DNA of 10,749 nt from NCBI GenBank assembly GCA_040374805.1, contig JBEITS010000023.1, positions 1-10,749 on the forward strand. The letters run 5' to 3'. Both the position numbers and the translations under genes were made by a program. Under the pieces are notes generated by a model. It was not told the DNA's origin, did not search any database, and saw only the letters and a list, made by a program, of their open reading frames with translations. Positions 1-7,015 of this stretch are shown here, one piece after another. The stretch comes from Campylobacterota bacterium (GTDB lineage Bacteria > Babelota > Babeliae > Babelales > GCA-2401785). Within the stretch, counting starts at the first letter, position 1. The number at the start of each line of letters is the position of its first letter.

Positions 1-2
1 AG

Positions 3-176
3 TGGGATATTGCAAGTGATGTGCGTATCGCTATTTATAAAGCATTCCGTGAGAAGGGCATCGTCTTCCCTTACCCTCGAATGATTTTGTATCAAAACCA
101 AAACAAGCATGATGACGCAAGCTCATTCTTCAAGTTTAAGTTTGATAACGAAATTGGAGCGCAAAACTTCGATTGA
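3..176 (+). CDS. 3' fragment of a mechanosensitive channel (MscS-family-like) C-terminal domain; the gene starts upstream of the window
   Basis: Frame 3 is open from the window edge to a TGA at 174-176. It translates to WDIASDVRIAIYKAFREKGIVFPYPRMILYQNQ..., which resembles the conserved C-terminal region of MscS-type channels. This is recognition by eye and was not searched. Confidence 0.45.
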   Translation, partial: WDIASDVRIAIYKAFREKGIVFPYPRMILYQNQNKHDDASSFFKFKFDNEIGAQNFD

Positions 177-201
177 TTTTTTAGGTCGAGCTTAGTTAAA
201 C

Positions 202-245
202 AAAAAGCCACGCACAGAATAACGGTGTGCGTGGCTTTTTGTTTG
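202..245. terminator. Bidirectional rho-independent terminator between the convergent MscS-like and NUDIX genes
   Basis: A perfect 11-bp stem agccacgcaca (206-216) pairs with tgtgcgtggct (226-236) around a 9-nt loop. It is flanked by an A-run on the left and a T-run on the right, so it reads as a terminator on both strands. Confidence 0.75.
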
Positions 246-292
246 ATTCTCGTAGAGAAAACCCTTGATGCATTACATGTGCATCGAGTGAT

Positions 293-742
293 TTATTTTT
301 CTGAGGGGTACTCGGAGTACATGACCTCTTCAAACATGTTTTCAATCGCTTGCCTGTTGCGTGCAATAAGCGTTTCTGGAAGTTGATCCATATCGACCCA
401 TTCAAGGCGATCATGTTTGTGAGAAGCTTTATTGAAGGGCTCGCCTTCCCATTTTTTTACCAAAAAGTAGTTTTCTTCTGTTTCGCGGTCGTTGTCTTTG
501 GATGAAATAACGTGAACAAGCGTAAGATCTTCTGGTTTCACCGTTACACCAACTTCTTCAAAAATTTCGCGAATAGCTGCCTGCTTAATAGGTTCTCCAG
601 GTTGAGCCAACCCGCCAATAAGACCGTGCTTATTATTGTTTTGTTCTGTGTTATTGCGAAAAACAGTGAGAACGTCGCCATTTTTTATAAAAATTGCGCC
701 GACGCCAATAAAAGATTTTGTAGCGTTTTCGGGGTGGGGCAT
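293..742 (-). CDS. NUDIX (MutT-like) hydrolase, 149 aa
   Basis: A perfect Nudix box G-x5-E-x7-REUxEExGU is present as GLAQPGEPIKQAAIREIFEEVGV. I chose the start at ATG 742 (MPHPENATKSF...) because AGGAG sits 8 nt upstream on the minus strand (caAGGAGccattATG). The longer ORF reaching 943 has no RBS and would overlap the neighbouring gene end. Confidence 0.85.
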   Translation of the reverse strand: MPHPENATKSFIGVGAIFIKNGDVLTVFRNNTEQNNNKHGLIGGLAQPGEPIKQAAIREIFEEVGVTVKPEDLTLVHVISSKDNDRETEENYFLVKKWEGEPFNKASHKHDRLEWVDMDQLPETLIARNRQAIENMFEEVMYSEYPSEK

Positions 743-846
743 AATGGCTCCTTGCAGTGTTGTATTTGAGCACATTGGTGTATGGCTCAAGTATACCATG
801 CAATTATGGGCCGTACATAATGTCTGCAGGAACGGCTTTGGTGTGG

Positions 847-1815
847 CTATTGCCACTGAAATAGATCGAAGTTTTCGTCTTGGCGCAGCTGGGCAAGCTC
901 TTGGATTGCTTGGCGTATTTTGGTGAACCCAGTTTTTCTCCATTCAGGGTTTGTGTGCGTGGAATTGCGTGAGGGGGGCATTGATTGCTGTGTTAAGGCT
1001 TGGTAGGTGCACTCTGTGGCATTGGGTACATAAATCCAGTTTTCAACAAAATTGATCTGAATGCTTCTTGTAAGCAAATTGTTTTGAGTGTCATTAAAAA
1101 TAAGGACGATCCACGGGGTTGATTTGTCTGCTTGCAGTGCTTTAAGGGCATTTTCGGCCTGGCTTAGCAGTGCAAGATGAGAAACTTTTATCACCAGGAA
1201 CTTAAAAATATAGGCATCATTGTTGTTCGAATTGCTGATGCTGTTGAGGAGCGCTTCTTCCTTGAGCTTCTGTGTTTTTGAGCTAATAAATGTGTGAACG
1301 TTAACGACTTGGATTGTCCTGAGGCTTGGGTCGATATCAAACTTTTCTGTGAATCGGTTTTCAAAATCGGCGAGTGTGTGGATATTTTCTGCTGCGCGAG
1401 ATGATGTTCGATCGAGCTGCTTGAGCGCCATCGTTTTTTCTTTTTCGTTGTGCATGAGGTCAGCAATTTCGGCTGCTATTATTTCTTGTTCTGTTGGTTG
1501 CAAAGCTCTTCTCATGGCATTTACACGTTCTGCACGTGTTGATTGATTGAATGTGTCACTCGATTTGCTGGGCGCGCTGGTTTGATCTGGGCATGCCAGT
1601 GCTTTTTGCACGGCGGGTGGAAGCGATTGTTGTTGTGTTCCCGCAATGAACTTTTTGAGTTTTGCCGAGCGTAGCCCGTTGGTTACTTTTGTGATGTAAG
1701 GGGTGATTATGCTTACCGCGGTTTCTAGCATTGCCTGAGGTGAGCGAGCTGAGGCTGAAGGGGTAGCGAGGGCGAGCAGCGTTGCCGCAAGCAGTGCAAA
1801 TTGTTTCTTTTGCAT
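847..1815 (-). CDS. Secreted/periplasmic protein of unknown function, 322 aa, with a Sec signal peptide
   Basis: The N-terminus MQKKQFALLAATLLALATPSASA/RS has a basic n-region, a hydrophobic core and an AxA cleavage site. AAGGC lies 7 nt upstream of the ATG. There is an Asn-rich stretch, NSISNSNNND, and I recognise no family. Confidence 0.65.
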   Translation of the reverse strand: MQKKQFALLAATLLALATPSASARSPQAMLETAVSIITPYITKVTNGLRSAKLKKFIAGTQQQSLPPAVQKALACPDQTSAPSKSSDTFNQSTRAERVNAMRRALQPTEQEIIAAEIADLMHNEKEKTMALKQLDRTSSRAAENIHTLADFENRFTEKFDIDPSLRTIQVVNVHTFISSKTQKLKEEALLNSISNSNNNDAYIFKFLVIKVSHLALLSQAENALKALQADKSTPWIVLIFNDTQNNLLTRSIQINFVENWIYVPNATECTYQALTQQSMPPSRNSTHTNPEWRKTGFTKIRQAIQELAQLRQDENFDLFQWQ

Positions 1816-1955
1816 GAAAAAGCCTTAAATTCCGCGAAAAGGCGGGTGAGGGGTGGGTTTTCTGTATTGTATTAGTCTGCCAGAAGGTTTGTTCTGTGCG
1901 AGTGCTTCTCTGGTTTTAGAGAAAAAGCTTGGAAAATTACCCTTTTTGAGGGGGC

Positions 1956-2321
1956 TTAGGGGGTTCGAGCCAACAGCTTTTTGCCTTCAATGATGAGCCG
2001 CTCGAGAACGATAATGCTTAAAAAAAGGGCTACATAATAACCCCAGCTGGGCATATTGAGGGCTTGTTTAACCCAGCGCATGGCTATAAATAAGCTCGTT
2101 GCGCTCGCTAAGATAAGTGCCCAGTCGCGTTGGAGGGTTAGGTTTTTTTGTGCGGCTTGAGCGGGATATTTAAGGCAGAGAGACGCGCAGAAAAAAAGGT
2201 TGGCGAGTAGGCCGTACCAGATGGGGATGCCAAGATAAAGCTGGATCGACCATGAAGCAGCAGACCAAACAAGGCTGAAGATAATGTTTTTTGGCGTGAG
2301 AAGGGATAAAAGACGTTTCAT
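1956..2321 (-). CDS. Small polytopic inner-membrane protein, 121 aa, about 4 predicted TM helices, unknown function
   Basis: The ORF is hydrophobic throughout, with segments such as IIFSLVWSAASWSIQLYLGIPIWYGLLANLFFCASL. A TAAGAGA Shine-Dalgarno lies 9-14 nt upstream and is embedded in a hairpin arm. Confidence 0.55.
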   Translation of the reverse strand: MKRLLSLLTPKNIIFSLVWSAASWSIQLYLGIPIWYGLLANLFFCASLCLKYPAQAAQKNLTLQRDWALILASATSLFIAMRWVKQALNMPSWGYYVALFLSIIVLERLIIEGKKLLARTP

Positions 2322-2333
2322 GCAAAGGGTCTC

Positions 2334-2367
2334 TTAAGAGCTTGCGAGCGGATGTAGAAGCTCTTAA
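2334..2367 (-). promoter_or_regulatory. Perfect 10-bp stem-loop in the 5' leader of the 121-aa membrane-protein gene, overlapping its Shine-Dalgarno
   Basis: ttaagagctt (2334-2343) pairs with aagctcttaa (2358-2367) across a 14-nt loop. On the minus-strand mRNA the 3' arm AAGCUCUUAA runs straight into GAGA, which is the RBS TAAGAGA, about 9 nt before the AUG at 2321. Confidence 0.35.
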
Positions 2368-2634
2368 AGTCTACGCACCTCTTGGGAGGAGGTGCAATTA
2401 TTCGCCGCGCTTTTGTTTGTGAGGTGCTAATCATGCAATTTAATACTAGAGAATTCTTGTTTTGAGACTTTGGATTAGCAGTATTTTTCTAACATCTGTT
2501 GGCGCAAATCCAATGCAATCAATTTATACGTTTGCTAAGTTGTTTGCTGACCGGCTTGTTCAGGCATAAAGCCTTAAGAACTTAAAGATACGGATTGGGG
2601 AGTGGCGTATCGTCAACAAGTCGTATTTCAATCG

Positions 2635-3138
2635 TTACGATTTTCGGCTTAACAAGCTTTTAATCTTGTTCATAATATGGCCCATGTAGCCAACGCCGGC
2701 ACCCATAGAAAAGTGTAGCAGAAGCCTAAGAATGGTTTCGCTTGCAGGGTTGAGTTGCAGTAGAGGCAGGTGTGAGATGAGTAAAATCTGACCTGAACTT
2801 AGGGCGGCAAGAACGCCTGCAGATAGTCCAACAATTTTTACTTTTGTTAATGTTGAAAGAGATGAGTCTTGCAGGTCGACAGGTTTTGTTTTTGTGAAAA
2901 AGGTGAATGCTCCGGCAAAATACCCGGCCATTGTTGCGATAAAGGCTTGCCAGCTATGAAATGCAGTGTTTTTGCTTGCCATGTAGATGTGGTTGTATTG
3001 CTCGGGAAAGGTAAGGCCAAAGAATTGTAGGCCATAATGCACAGCGCCGAAGATAATAATGCCAAAGAGTCCTGCGGCACATGCGGCGATCGTGAAGCCG
3101 AGAAGCATTCCTAATTTTTCTTTAAAAGATTCGTTCAT
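2635..3138 (-). CDS. Polytopic membrane protein of unknown function, 167 aa
   Basis: The ORF has several long hydrophobic segments, for example LGMLLGFTIAACAAGLFGIIIFGAVHYGL and IVGLSAGVLAALSSGQILLI. It starts 61 bp downstream of the flotillin stop, after a strong hairpin. The RBS is a weak AAGAG. Confidence 0.55.
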   Translation of the reverse strand: MNESFKEKLGMLLGFTIAACAAGLFGIIIFGAVHYGLQFFGLTFPEQYNHIYMASKNTAFHSWQAFIATMAGYFAGAFTFFTKTKPVDLQDSSLSTLTKVKIVGLSAGVLAALSSGQILLISHLPLLQLNPASETILRLLLHFSMGAGVGYMGHIMNKIKSLLSRKS

Positions 3139-3164
3139 ACATTCTCTTTGTGGTTAAGATTAAT

Positions 3165-3193
3165 GGTCTGGAGAGAAAATATCTCTCCAGACC
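3165..3193 (-). terminator. Perfect 12-bp stem-loop between the flotillin stop and the next gene; probable intrinsic terminator or attenuator
   Basis: ggtctggagaga (3165-3176) pairs with tctctccagacc (3182-3193) around a 5-nt loop. It lies 7 nt after the flotillin TAA on the minus strand. The minus-strand tail AUUAAUCUU is only moderately U-rich, so it may terminate partially or act as a stability element. Confidence 0.45.
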
Positions 3194-3199
3194 GCTGTG

Positions 3200-4528
3200 T
3201 TACGCTTTTTTTTCTGAGTCTTGTTTGTCTTCAAGCTCGCCTAAATAGTCGGGCAGTTTTACGCCAGACATTTTAGCAAGTTCATGGAGAGGGGGCAGCG
3301 ACTTAATCATTCCGCTTAAGAAATTTGCGGTTGAGCTTTTATCGCCTTGGCCGCTGTCCCAAACAGTAATTTTATCTATTTTAATGTTTTTGATGGCTTC
3401 GGTTTGAAGTCTGACAATTTCATCGAGCTTTTCTACCATCAGCATGGTTGATGCGTCTTTGCTAGATGAACAGGCATCAACCAAGAGTTTATACCCTTGA
3501 GCTTTTGCTTGAAGTGTTTGCAAGATGCCCTGCGCTTCTGCTTGTTTGATTGCAAGGATCGAAGCTGCTTTAGCGAGCGCGTCAATTTTTTGCTTTTCAG
3601 CATCGGCTGAGGCTTCAATTTCGATCATTCGCTTTTCGATTTCTTTGGGCACAATTTCTTCTGCTTCAAGACGTCTGCTTTCTGCAACGGTTTTTGCGAT
3701 GTTAATTTCTGCGAATGCATTTTGTAGAGAAACTTTACTGCGTCTATCGGCATCGGCTTCTTGTTCAACAAGTTGCGCATTGAAATCTGCAATTCGCGCC
3801 TTTGATGCGTTTTCGCCTTCCACCGCTTGGGCGTGGTAGGCTGCAACTTGAATTCGACGTTCTTTTTCGGCGAGCGATTTTCCAATTTCACCAAGCTTTT
3901 CTTGTTCTGCAACGTCGATTTTTGCTTGGTTGAGCGCTGTGGAAACAGATTTTCTTCCAATGCTTTCGATGTAGCCAGATTCGTCGGTGATATCGGTGAT
4001 GTTTACGTTGAGCAGCATAAGGCCAATTTTCTTGAGTTCTGGCTCGATGTGTTTTCTGATTTCGAATAAGAAGCGTTCTCGGTCGCGGTTGATTTCTTCA
4101 ATCTGGAGCGATGCAACGGTTAATCGTAATTGCCCCACAATGATTTCTGTAGCCATTAGCTCGATGTCTTTAGGCGAGAGGCCTAGCAATCTAATGGCGG
4201 CGTTCTGCATCGCTTCTGGCGTGGTATCTAGAGCAACAGTAAACGTGCTGGGCACGTTGATACGAATGTTTTGTTGAGAGAGCGCAGATTTTAGCGGAAC
4301 GTGAATAGCAATAGGGGTGAGATCGAGATAGTGATAATCCTGGATGAGTGGCCAAACGAATGCGCCACCGCCGTGGTAACACTTAGACGACTGATCTGCT
4401 TGCACGCGTCCAAAAACAACAAGGATTTTGTTGGACGGGCAACGGTGATAACAATTTGCCAGAAAAACTAGGGTGAAAAATATAAAGAGTGCCGCTGAGG
4501 CAGCCCCAAGTAATACAAAATCAATCAT
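3200..4528 (-). CDS. yqiK: Flotillin-like SPFH/band-7 protein (YqiK-type), 442 aa
   Basis: The protein has an N-terminal TM helix (FVLLGAASAALFIFFTLVFL), an SPFH core, and a long Ala/Glu/Lys-rich coiled-coil region (EQEADADRRSKV...AEKQKIDALAKAASILAIKQAEAQG) typical of bacterial flotillins. A GGAGAGG RBS lies 8 nt upstream. Its ATG overlaps the upstream gene's TGA as ATGA. Confidence 0.85.
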   Translation of the reverse strand: MIDFVLLGAASAALFIFFTLVFLANCYHRCPSNKILVVFGRVQADQSSKCYHGGGAFVWPLIQDYHYLDLTPIAIHVPLKSALSQQNIRINVPSTFTVALDTTPEAMQNAAIRLLGLSPKDIELMATEIIVGQLRLTVASLQIEEINRDRERFLFEIRKHIEPELKKIGLMLLNVNITDITDESGYIESIGRKSVSTALNQAKIDVAEQEKLGEIGKSLAEKERRIQVAAYHAQAVEGENASKARIADFNAQLVEQEADADRRSKVSLQNAFAEINIAKTVAESRRLEAEEIVPKEIEKRMIEIEASADAEKQKIDALAKAASILAIKQAEAQGILQTLQAKAQGYKLLVDACSSSKDASTMLMVEKLDEIVRLQTEAIKNIKIDKITVWDSGQGDKSSTANFLSGMIKSLPPLHELAKMSGVKLPDYLGELEDKQDSEKKA

Positions 4529-5124
4529 TTAGATTCCTCTCCGATTTTTACGACTTCAACAACTTCGTGGTCGATTGCTTTAACCACCTTAACAAGGTTA
4601 AACGATTCTATGGGTTTTTTTGAGTGAGATTGAGCAAGGAGTTCGCGCGTGCTGCCGTTAACAATTACCTGTACTTTGCCTTGGCCATGCGCCGGAATTC
4701 TTTGGATTACAGTTGCGGGTAGTCCGACAGTCTTTTTGCTCGAAAAAACCGCCCCCGCGCCTTCAAGCGATAGCGCAATCTGCATTAGAGAAGCTGTGAT
4801 AATGAGCATTGCGATGCCACATCCTAGTGCGATGAGCATAGAATATCCTGGAGTCATTTTGAACTGCACGCTGCACGCAAGCCCAGCCCAGCCAAACATC
4901 ATCAAAAATCCAGACAGCGAATGTATGGTCAAAAATTTGAAGAGTGCGCCATCGTGATGATGCATGTCGTGCAGATCATCAACATCCATGTCGTGCTCAA
5001 AAAAGCCGCCGCCAAAGAACGATAGCATGAGGCGTAGTGCAAAAAATGTTGTTCCGAGGGTTGCGCTTACCCAGAAAATAGGATCCTGGGTGGTTGTTAG
5101 AAAATTAATAATGCGGTCAATCAT
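4525..5124 (-). CDS. yqiJ: NfeD-like membrane protein (YqiJ-type flotillin partner), 199 aa
   Basis: Membrane helices are followed by a C-terminal OB-fold-like NfeD signature, GQGKVQVIVNGSTRELLAQS...VKVVKAIDHEVVEVVKI. The gene sits immediately upstream of the flotillin gene with a 4-bp overlap, which is the canonical nfeD-flotillin arrangement. AAGGAA lies 8 nt upstream of the ATG at 5124. There is an unusual His/Asp-rich stretch, HDMDVDDLHDMHHHDG. Confidence 0.7.
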   Translation of the reverse strand: MIDRIINFLTTTQDPIFWVSATLGTTFFALRLMLSFFGGGFFEHDMDVDDLHDMHHHDGALFKFLTIHSLSGFLMMFGWAGLACSVQFKMTPGYSMLIALGCGIAMLIITASLMQIALSLEGAGAVFSSKKTVGLPATVIQRIPAHGQGKVQVIVNGSTRELLAQSHSKKPIESFNLVKVVKAIDHEVVEVVKIGEESK

Positions 5125-5197
5125 TGCGAGAATTCCTTAAAAAAGAGGTAAGGGTTCGAGTTTTAATGACGATTGCTGAGAGCTTGAGGTTTTTAGA

Positions 5198-5215
5198 AAT
5201 AAGGGGAATAAGGGG
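5198..5215. repeat. Tandem 9-bp direct repeat (aataagggg x2) in the promoter region of the nfeD-flotillin operon
   Basis: aataagggg occurs at 5198-5206 and again at 5207-5215, about 75-90 bp upstream of the nfeD start on the minus strand. It could be a regulator binding site. Confidence 0.3.
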
Positions 5216-5361
5216 CAAAACGACAACGCTTTTTATGGTATCAGAGATAGAAAATTGTGGAAGTTTGGATGCTTGGTGGTGTTTTGGGCTATGGAATAGA
5301 TAATTTTATACTTAAGTTACGTGCGGCGCAGTTAGCTTAAGCCTTGATAAAGGCCGTCCTG

Positions 5362-5388
5362 CCAGTCAATTCCTCCGGAAATGACTGG
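5362..5388 (-). repeat. tRNA 3'-trailer hairpin, copy 1 (CCAGTCA-N13-TGACTGG), overlapping the CCA of tRNA-Glu
   Basis: ccagtca attcctccggaaa tgactgg: a 7-bp stem whose tgg on the plus strand is the CCA of tRNA-Glu on the minus strand. The loop contains the palindrome tccgga. Confidence 0.5.
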
Positions 5389-5462
5389 CGTCCCCAAGGG
5401 GATTCGAACCCCTGTTACCAGAATGAAAATCTGGTGTCCTGGACCGACTAGACGATGGGGAC
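5386..5462 (-). tRNA. tRNA-Glu (anticodon UUC), 77 nt including an encoded CCA
   Basis: The reverse complement reads GTCCCCATCGTCTAGTCGGTCCAGGACACCAGATTTTCATTCTGGTAACAGGGGTTCGAATCCCCTTGGGGACGCCA. It folds as a cloverleaf: 7-bp acceptor stem GTCCCCA/TGGGGAC, anticodon loop TTTTCAT giving anticodon TTC, and T-arm AGGGG-TTCGAAT-CCCCT. It is very close to enterobacterial tRNA-Glu. Confidence 0.92.
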
Positions 5463-5523
5463 TAGCACTAAGAATAGGTAATGGATTAGTCCGTAGACTC
5501 AGCATCTGTGTGAGGCTGGCTTG

Positions 5524-5550
5524 CCAGTCATTTCCGGAAGAAGTGACTGG
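5524..5550 (-). repeat. tRNA 3'-trailer hairpin, copy 2 (CCAGTCA-N13-TGACTGG), overlapping the CCA of tRNA-Lys
   Basis: ccagtca tttccggaagaag tgactgg: the same 7-bp stem as copy 1, preceded by the same tg. The loop is approximately the reverse complement of the copy-1 loop. The tgg at 5548-5550 is the CCA of tRNA-Lys. Confidence 0.5.
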
Positions 5551-5623
5551 TGAGCCGCGTTGGATTCGAACCAACGACCCACAGCTTAAAAGGCTGTTGC
5601 TCTACCGACTGAGCTAGCGGCTC
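5548..5623 (-). tRNA. tRNA-Lys (anticodon UUU), 76 nt including an encoded CCA
   Basis: The reverse complement reads GAGCCGCTAGCTCAGTCGGTAGAGCAACAGCCTTTTAAGCTGTGGGTCGTTGGTTCGAATCCAACGCGGCTCACCA. It has acceptor stem GAGCCGC/GCGGCTC, D-arm GCTC/GAGC, anticodon stem ACAGC/GCTGT with loop CTTTTAA (anticodon TTT), and T-arm GTTGG-TTCGAAT-CCAAC. Confidence 0.92.
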
Positions 5624-5657
5624 TTATTTGGTAATCCATTTGTATACCATGCCACCA

Positions 5658-5686
5658 ATCGTACCGAAGTGGGTTCTGACTGTCAA
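5658..5686 (-). promoter_or_regulatory. Sigma70-type promoter for the tRNA-Lys/tRNA-Glu operon
   Basis: The minus strand reads TTGACA (plus 5681-5686), a 17-nt spacer, then TACGAT (plus 5658-5663). The -35 is perfect and the -10 matches 4 of 6. It lies about 34 nt upstream of the tRNA-Lys 5' end. Confidence 0.5.
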
Positions 5687-5997
5687 GACTGAATCGTTCA
5701 TATGCCGAGATTTTTATACAAAGAAAACTTTTTTGATAAAAATACGCACTTTTTATATCCAACTTCTTATAAATGTTTCAGCATGAATCGTGGCAATAGT
5801 TAAAAGCGCAAAAAACACGCTTTTTTAATGCTGCGTGCTGGTTTGTTATAGGGCCATTTTTATGTGTTTCACTGTGTGATTTATTGTGAGAGTGCAGTTT
5901 TCTGTTTTTAAGCGATAGTGCGAGGTTGGGTTTTGTAAAAAAGCTTAGTGTTCACCAGAAGAAATTGCGTGTTTTTGGCTTGGTTGGTTTGGAAAAA

Positions 5998-6807
5998 ATG
6001 TTGAAAGTTAGAATGATATTTTTAAAACGTATTTTGATGTCAGTTGTTGTGTGTGTGATGTTTGGGAATGCCCCTCTTGGGGCAGGGAAATTTCCCTGGT
6101 GTTGCTGCCGCAGAGGAGATGTTGCAACTCCTGTTGATGAAGATGTCGATGTATATGCAGAGTTTCCTACGGATACTGGTTTGGAAAAAACTTCACCTGT
6201 TAGCGTGCAGCCTTCTCGGCGGTTTTCTGAGTCGGGTGATTCGGTGAGTCCTATAAGGACTCCTCCTGCAGCTCCTTCGTCCCCCATTGTTTTGTCTCCC
6301 ATAATGATGCCTAAACCGCGCATGAATCCAGAAGTTACCAGAGAACTTAGTTACTTGGAGATTGATGTAGTTACTAAGCGTTATTTGGCTTCACAGGTCT
6401 ATAAAGATTTTTATGTAATTCTTCGTAACAACGGTTTTTTTGATCTTGCAACAACAGGTTTTGCACCAGTGTTCGTCCGCACAATTTGGGAGCATGTTGA
6501 AAAGTGTTTGAGCTATAATAATTTGCCAGCAGATTGCCGCACTGTTGCAAGGGTTATGCGTGGATTATTCCCTCAATTCTTATATGATACGTCCCCTTTT
6601 GGGGTTATTGATTTGCGTAGAACGTCTACATTAATTTTGTTTTGGATAACAGGAAGCGATTCGCATGAGCGCGTTGACCGGGCAGATCCTAGAACGGGTA
6701 AATTACAAGGGTTTGCGAGATATACGGGCAGCTTTTTTATACATCCCTTGGACTATTCTGATTATCTCAGAGTGTTTGAGATGGAGCAGACAAGGTTTCG
6801 TGTCTAG
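5998..6807 (+). CDS. Sec-signal protein of unknown function, about 269 aa, with an RGD motif, an acidic segment and a Pro/Ser-rich linker before a C-terminal domain
   Basis: The ORF track starts at TTG 5926, but the ATG at 5998 gives a credible signal peptide MLKVRMIFLKRILMSVVVCVMFGNAPLGA. The mature part reads CCCRRGDVATPVDEDVDVYAEF, then SPIRTPPAAPSSPIVLSPIMMPKPR, then a roughly 150-aa domain containing C...H...D residues (ADCRTVARVMRG ... SDSHERVDRADPRTG). Alternative starts are at 6013 and 6037. Local GC looks low, about 30% by eye near the 5' end. Confidence 0.55.
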   Translation: MLKVRMIFLKRILMSVVVCVMFGNAPLGAGKFPWCCCRRGDVATPVDEDVDVYAEFPTDTGLEKTSPVSVQPSRRFSESGDSVSPIRTPPAAPSSPIVLSPIMMPKPRMNPEVTRELSYLEIDVVTKRYLASQVYKDFYVILRNNGFFDLATTGFAPVFVRTIWEHVEKCLSYNNLPADCRTVARVMRGLFPQFLYDTSPFGVIDLRRTSTLILFWITGSDSHERVDRADPRTGKLQGFARYTGSFFIHPLDYSDYLRVFEMEQTRFRV

Positions 6808-7015
6808 AACTGTTCTTTTTTATACATTTTGAGTGGGAGCATTTTACAAAATTTCTCCCTGTGTTCCAGTGTTCTTAAAAAAGTCCCAAAAGACGCTTTT
6901 TTCGCGGTGTTTTTGCCCAAGAATTGGGCTGTGTGAAGTTTTGATATGTTAATTTTTTACTCAGGCGACGTTGTTTTGTTTGAGTGGCCATACATTTGTT
7001 CTTTGGGGGATCTGC

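Follow-up and report, generated by a model that had tools for sequence, protein, structure and literature searches.

The cultured Dependentiae are obligate intracellular parasites of amoebae and of a heterotrophic flagellate (PMC6561590). In one of them, Chromulinavorax destructans, 44% of the coding sequences carry signal peptides, a set in which ORFans are over-represented (Deeg et al. 2019, PMC6561590). Given these secretome figures, a signal-peptide orphan is the commonest kind of gene in the Dependentiae and no exception. The gene described here lies at positions 5998-6807 of a 10,749-bp stretch of DNA (the window), which is a complete metagenomic contig. It appears from its sequence to be a lineage-restricted gene for an orphan accessory protein with a predicted signal peptide, and its sole feature above the ordinary is an allelic dimorphism with a conversion tract. 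To our knowledge, none of the signal-peptide ORFans of the Dependentiae has a demonstrated function, and we know of no effector that has been characterised in the phylum. The source organism is an uncultured member of the Dependentiae (TM6), because the named relatives of the adjoining flotillin (69-80% identity) all belong to Candidatus Babeliales/Candidatus Dependentiae.

An initial annotation had brought two further groups of proteins into the comparison, by reading the target as a possible host-interaction factor with an RGD motif and a C-terminal domain loosely resembling transglutaminase-like and papain-like cysteine hydrolases. RGD motifs are carried by bacterial adhesins and toxins such as Bordetella pertactin and Helicobacter CagL. 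The hydrolases of PF01841 and clan CA have their catalytic Cys at a helix N-terminus, inside a Gly/small-x-Cys-x-x-aromatic-Ala/Ser signature, and typically, as in TGase2, PNGase, LapG, papain and YopT, a His on a beta-strand is followed after about 12-23 residues by an Asp (or Asn) on the next strand. The strings quoted in that annotation are all present in the translation of 5998-6807.

Relatives of the target were sought with a word-indexed search of 5.8 billion proteins and a full HMMER scan of 1.84 billion representatives. The first search matched two clusters (99% and 85% identity) whose members reduce to three distinct sequences: that of the window, P0001 on contig L006 (allele A), and allele B, all from one species-level lineage. 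The sole extra HMMER match (P0003) was rejected as an artefact, a tandem-repeat protein that matches one 40-residue stretch three times. No relatives were found in the GTDB species-representative genomes or in JGI metagenome contigs, and an all-vs-all blastp recovered no paralogues among the proteins of the window. With thresholds as loose as E<=10, Pfam scans of the full protein, of its C-terminal domain and of allele B returned 0 families, cysteine-hydrolase models such as PF01841, Peptidase_C1, NLPC_P60 and CHAP included. Scans with NCBIfam and PHROGs gave no match either, and the only match in a PDB sequence-profile search (E=0.79) falls in the signal-peptide region and is not significant.

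A counterpart is also absent from the syntenic site of the closest sister lineage (L087, L088 and L089; flotillin 88%). L087 and L088, with 88% identity in flotillin, 65% in NfeD and 60% in NUDIX, retain the order class I ribonucleotide reductase (RNR), homologue of the 560-aa gene p560, tRNA-Lys, tRNA-Glu, NfeD, flotillin, NUDIX. In the window, the two tRNA genes form the conserved edge of the target site:

5548-5623, - strand: tRNA-Lys(UUU)
5386-5462: tRNA-Glu(UUC)

The gap between tRNA-Lys and the p560 homologue, where the target would be, measures only 303 bp in the sister lineage, and there is therefore no counterpart there. The target would thus be a recent gain, or a loss elsewhere, beside a tRNA gene.

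The reading frame and its parts are laid out as follows:

5998-6807, + strand: coding sequence of the orphan, predicted exported protein (translation), 269 aa plus stop (6805-6807), start ATG 5998
5998-6087, + strand: predicted Sec-type signal peptide, residues 1-30, MLKVRMIFLKRILMSVVVCVMFGNAPLGAG (hydropathy, inspection)
6100-6120, + strand: Cys cluster and RGD, CCCRRGD, residues 35-41 (translation)
6133-6162, + strand: acidic patch VDEDVDVYAE, residues 46-55 (translation)
6163-6351, + strand: Pro/Ser-rich, probably disordered spacer, residues 56-118 (composition; low-confidence coil in AlphaFold2, AF2)
6352-6804, + strand: C-terminal domain, residues 119-269 (about 150 aa), with four helices, a beta-meander and a C-terminal helix predicted

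The target is a real gene under moderate purifying selection, because its frame is kept in the divergent allele B and nonsynonymous divergence (dN) is significantly lower than synonymous divergence (dS). Relative to the window, allele B carries 64 substitutions and a 9-nt deletion that is in frame (8% nucleotide divergence), with the open reading frame (ORF) intact in both, and dN/dS is 0.45 overall and 0.39 in the C-terminal domain (dN < dS, Fisher p=0.003). ATG 5998 is the best-fitting start, and one of the deposited NCBI gene calls (P0128) begins at the same codon. A longer ORF from TTG 5926 would add a 24-residue basic extension; this start and the ATG of the 304-aa call in allele B were both rejected, since a TAG interrupts the upstream extension in the window and it is not conserved. 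The G+C content of the target is the same as that of its surroundings, and a terminator consensus scan gave nothing convincing for it. An antisense ORF (5952-6323, - strand, 123 aa) overlaps the 5' half of the target, is open in both alleles and has an apparent dN/dS of 0.34. This low ratio is uninformative because the two frames share their third codon positions, and the ORF spans the spacer only. We rejected it as a gene; it is most simply explained as a frame that shares the sense third positions in a Pro/Ser/Val-rich region.

Divergence was counted along the window against the contigs that carry allele B, and conversion was assessed by a three-way comparison of the window, L006 and allele B:

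nt 884-4600: 3 differences (about 0.1% in the upstream flanks)
nt 6000-6399: 57 differences (14%; N-terminal half of the target)
nt 6400-6599: 0 differences
nt 6600-7200: 45 differences
beyond nt 7200, downstream: about 1-2% differences
four upstream genes: dS 0-0.009
NfeD-like gene p199: dS 0.045
target: dS 0.149 overall, 0.30 in residues 31-125
p560: dS 0.112 in its first part, 0.032 in its second part
6375-6636, + strand: gene-conversion tract, maximal bounds

The target is the most polymorphic spot, a diversity hot spot in an otherwise near-identical region, with 42 differences from allele B in nt 6001-6300 alone. The raised diversity is not just a matter of relaxed constraint, because dS itself is raised. 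The spacer is the most divergent part of the gene, and the C-terminal domain is clearly more conserved (93% identity to allele B, 93-99% across the three sequences).

The window allele is of type A with a B-type gene-conversion patch of about 180-260 bp, as the three-way mosaic pattern shows. Within 6375-6636, the window agrees with allele B at 12/12 sites where the A-type contig L006 differs, and such an unbroken run of the 12 sites would arise by chance with a probability of about 6e-14. Outside the tract, the window agrees with L006 wherever the comparison with allele B can be made, except at the window-unique site 6711. Either the two alleles are old or one of them was imported. The window has two more small clusters of mismatches to the allele-B strains: 6 fall within 71-159, where the mechanosensitive-channel gene has its 3' end, and 17 within 4731-5381, which takes in the NfeD-like gene and the tRNA-Glu flank. 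The stretch between them (nt 160-4730) has only 3 differences, a hint of more recombination breakpoints.

Proteins that are exposed or recognised by a host typically show such persistent, recombining and divergent alleles against a near-identical background. We consider the target to be, somewhat more probably than otherwise, an accessory protein, displayed on the envelope or secreted, that varies because it is exposed to recognition by the host (or by phage). Its N-terminus has the tripartite build of a type I Sec signal peptide, so that on inspection the signal peptide predicted in the initial annotation is supported: an n-region with four basic residues (K3, R5, K10, R11), an 11-residue hydrophobic core (ILMSVVVCVMF, within the usual 10-15) and a c-region, GNAPLGAG, in which the residues at -1 and -3 are small (GNAPLGA|G|K). 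The Kyte-Doolittle maximum is at residues 4-22, windows above 1.6 occur in this N-terminal segment only, and AF2 places a low-confidence helix at residues 2-21. A lipoprotein was rejected, as there is no lipobox (VVVC has Val at -1). The segment is almost unchanged between the alleles, and export via a Sec signal is plausible. The neighbouring p322 and p560 proteins, which also begin with signal-peptide-like sequences, are in keeping with this picture.

The remaining layout described in the initial annotation was likewise recovered. The Cys cluster adjoins the RGD in PWCCCRRGD (residues 33-41, context KFPWCCCRRGD; RGD at residues 39-41, nt 6112-6120), and allele B has CCSCRGD, retaining three Cys and the RGD. 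The acidic patch follows, and allele B lacks its DVD (nt 6142-6150). Translation and composition confirm a Pro/Ser-rich linker (16% Pro and 12.5% Ser in residues 31-118) and, after it, a domain of about 150 aa at the C-terminus. A similar arrangement of four helices, beta-meander and C-terminal helix emerged from two independent AF2 runs of low confidence, and it is compatible with many folds. With a pLDDT (predicted local distance difference test) score of 33 for the full-length protein (3-sequence alignment) and 38.8 for the C-terminal domain alone, the models are too poor for use in three dimensions; a Foldseek search of the latter model against the PDB gave a best E of 0.45 with template-modelling scores <= 0.2, which is noise.

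On our preferred reading, the protein would be made with its Sec signal peptide, moved across the inner membrane and cleaved, probably near residues 29-31. The mature form would then begin with a three-Cys N-terminus, continue with a flexible spacer of some 85 residues, first acidic and then Pro/Ser-rich, and end in a compact alpha/beta domain of about 150 residues. Such an anchor, stalk and head would suit display on, or release from, the cell envelope, where the protein may be tethered through disulfides of its Cys cluster and may act through its C-terminal domain. We infer its export, its envelope or host-facing location and any binding role. The protist-parasite context and the strain-variable locus make a role in the envelope or in host interaction plausible.

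Several observations weigh against this reading. A consensus scan found no sigma-70-like promoter upstream of the target, and its Shine-Dalgarno sequence is weak, though most genes of the window also lack a clear one. The dN/dS below 1 means that there is no sign of positive selection. Two alleles and one mosaic fit balancing or diversifying selection and a single import of divergent DNA alike. Finally, the hydrophobic N-terminal segment may instead be an uncleaved membrane anchor.

The last point leads to an alternative that we hold to be unlikely, in which the target is an inner-membrane-anchored, periplasm-spanning protein of TonB/TolA type with a housekeeping role in the envelope, its uncleaved anchor followed by a rigid Pro-rich spacer and a C-terminal domain that contacts the outer membrane or cell wall. 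The sequence of hydrophobic helix, Pro-rich spacer and small alpha/beta domain would fit, the cleavage site in the c-region is only moderately canonical, and the gene adjoins the conserved NfeD-flotillin membrane operon. TonB_C, TolA and all other hidden Markov model (HMM) matches are missing, however, and the absence of the gene from the sister lineage means that it is not a core envelope function. The hypervariability of the spacer and anchor-proximal region between strains would also be unusual for core envelope machinery.

A bolder interpretation, which we rate as rather improbable, takes the C-terminal domain for a new fold that acts as a host-facing effector or recognition determinant. 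Old, recombining alleles would be kept by balancing or frequency-dependent selection from the host (or phage), as at avirulence and antigen loci, and the islands conserved in the spacer (CC.C-RGD, RRFSESGDS, TPPAAPSSP and six Ser/Thr-Pro sites) would mimic eukaryotic short linear motifs after delivery. The alleles and the mosaic, as noted above, agree equally well with a single import.

It is very unlikely that the target is an ORF of recent origin or in decay that has little if any function, its diversity a product of relaxed constraint on a dispensable frame beside a tRNA gene. Orphan status, the missing promoter and weak Shine-Dalgarno sequence, and the lack of a confident AF2 fold would all be expected of such a frame; its dN/dS of 0.45 is relaxed relative to the neighbours (only p199, at 0.10, gives a usable ratio), and the adjacent p560 is already disrupted by an insertion sequence (IS) in the window strain. 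Relaxed constraint cannot, however, cause a dS of 0.149 against 0-0.009 upstream. The survival of the frame through 64 substitutions and the 9-nt indel, with dN significantly below dS, and the better conservation of the C-terminal domain than of the spacer also argue against decay.

The Cys/His/Asp triad of the initial annotation is present as an order of residues (C180, H223 and D227 or D230), but at the level of sequence the hydrolase idea fails. The C-terminal domain contains 2 Cys (C170, C180), 3 His (H166, H223, H249) and 11 Asp, from which that order is trivially available; C180 sits within PADCRTVARVMRG, and D227 and D230 within SDSHERVDRADPRTG. C180 and H223 are 43 residues apart, not the roughly 55 once given. 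Both low-confidence AF2 models let a helix begin at C180 (178-196 in the full-length model), and in the full-length one H223 opens a strand, a topology generic to the superfamily. All four residues are identical in the three known sequences, which is uninformative given the 93% identity of the domain as a whole, and Pro231 of 'DPRTG' is Leu in allele B (DP to DL). The Gly-x-Cys-x-x-aromatic signature is absent around C180 (L-P-A-D-C-R-T-V-A; ADCRTVA). H223 is 4 residues from D227 and 7 from D230, distances that cannot put the Asp on a neighbouring strand, and the next Asp (D252) is 29 residues away. With neither an HMM nor a PDB match, the wrong motif and the wrong His-Asp spacing, the likeness to transglutaminases and papain does not hold at the sequence level.

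The RGD is kept in allele B though the two residues before it have changed, so its presence in both alleles stands. Its rarity does not: an RGD occurs in 7.7% of 100,000 composition-preserving shuffles of the target, and the region is low-confidence coil in AF2. The motif is statistically unremarkable and has no evidential weight. We know of no established route of entry into protists by RGD-integrin binding. The hosts of Dependentiae are protists (PMC6561590). A secreted effector that pairs a transglutaminase/papain-like hydrolase (C180, H223, D230) with RGD binding to an integrin-like host receptor is thus highly improbable, and unfit for annotation.

The window holds, in order, the 3' end of a mechanosensitive-channel gene, NUDIX, p322, p121, p167, flotillin and the NfeD-like gene, followed by tRNA-Glu, tRNA-Lys, the target, the IS-split 560-aa gene and the start of the class I ribonucleotide reductase gene. 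An Rfam scan of the window returned the two tRNAs only. Other features are:

847-3138, - strand: p167, p121 and p322, ORFs between flotillin and NUDIX, no family match
7730-8602: IS5-family insertion sequence, 873 bp, with perfect 17-bp terminal inverted repeats GGGCCTATCCGAAAACT
7016-7729 and 8603-9574: p560, the 560-aa gene split by the IS, intact elsewhere (e.g., L001 6125-7807)

The p167 and p121 proteins are membrane-like, and p322 has a signal peptide MQKKQFALLAATLLALATPSASA. Unlike the target, all three are 100% identical between strains; they are missing in the sister lineage, where flotillin is followed directly by NUDIX. The IS5-family element encodes an intact 258-aa DDE transposase (7822-8598; DUF4096 and DDE_Tnp_1), is flanked by a TTT/CTTT target duplication and is absent from all other contigs of the species (L001-L003, L090, L092, L093). 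No plasmid-borne IS5 transposase exceeds 33% identity to the one that it encodes. The p560 protein has a signal peptide MKNLMKILLGIFVMGVFLPVQA and belongs to no Pfam or NCBIfam family, and a homologue of its C-terminal half (30% identity, 421 aa) lies at the syntenic site of L087; p560 would be another exported protein that lacks annotation, and the older of the two.

The class I RNR (L003 3761-6289; L007-L086) reaches no more than 62% identity to anything in the GTDB representatives. The best matches come from many places, among them Patescibacteria/CPR (candidate phyla radiation), Dependentiae, Spirochaetota, DPANN archaea and Gammaproteobacteria and are of no use for taxonomy; they suggest a horizontally mobile RNR lineage common to small-genome symbionts. 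GC skew is positive in all 500-bp bins of the window (1-10749) but one, whatever the gene direction, and its cumulative value rises near-monotonically to 3.2. This pattern suggests strong mutational asymmetry, with + as the leading strand.

If the conservative reading is true, the target is one more of the many signal-peptide orphans in Dependentiae, and changes nothing. As a sharply bounded hot spot of polymorphism and recombination, it would be a sensible marker to consider for typing strains of an uncultured protist parasite, and the gene is likewise a reasonable candidate in searches for host-interaction genes.

Among the systems compared, the signal-peptide ORFans of the Chromulinavorax destructans secretome resemble the target in having a Sec signal, no recognisable domain or homologue and a presumed action at the envelope or on the host. 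They have no sequence relation to it, and only for the target is there evidence here of two divergent, recombining alleles. TonB/TolA-type proteins share its architecture alone (N-terminal hydrophobic helix, Pro-rich spacer and small C-terminal alpha/beta domain), whereas the target has no TonB_C or other family match, is missing in the sister lineage and is hypervariable. The RGD adhesins likewise have their motif in an exported protein, as the target is predicted to be, and in the target it is kept in both alleles. They are not homologous to it; the RGD of the target is in a probably disordered region, four residues after the Cys cluster, and its likely hosts are protists rather than animals. 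The transglutaminase/papain-like hydrolases (PF01841, clan CA) have the order Cys, His, Asp in common with the target, whose Cys is at the predicted N-terminus of a helix and whose 'DP.TG' string is reminiscent of the Asp motif 'DPT' in PF01841. The target differs from them in its lack of HMM or PDB similarity and of the signature around Cys, in a His-Asp distance of 4 or 7 instead of about 12-23, and in a DP whose Pro is not conserved.

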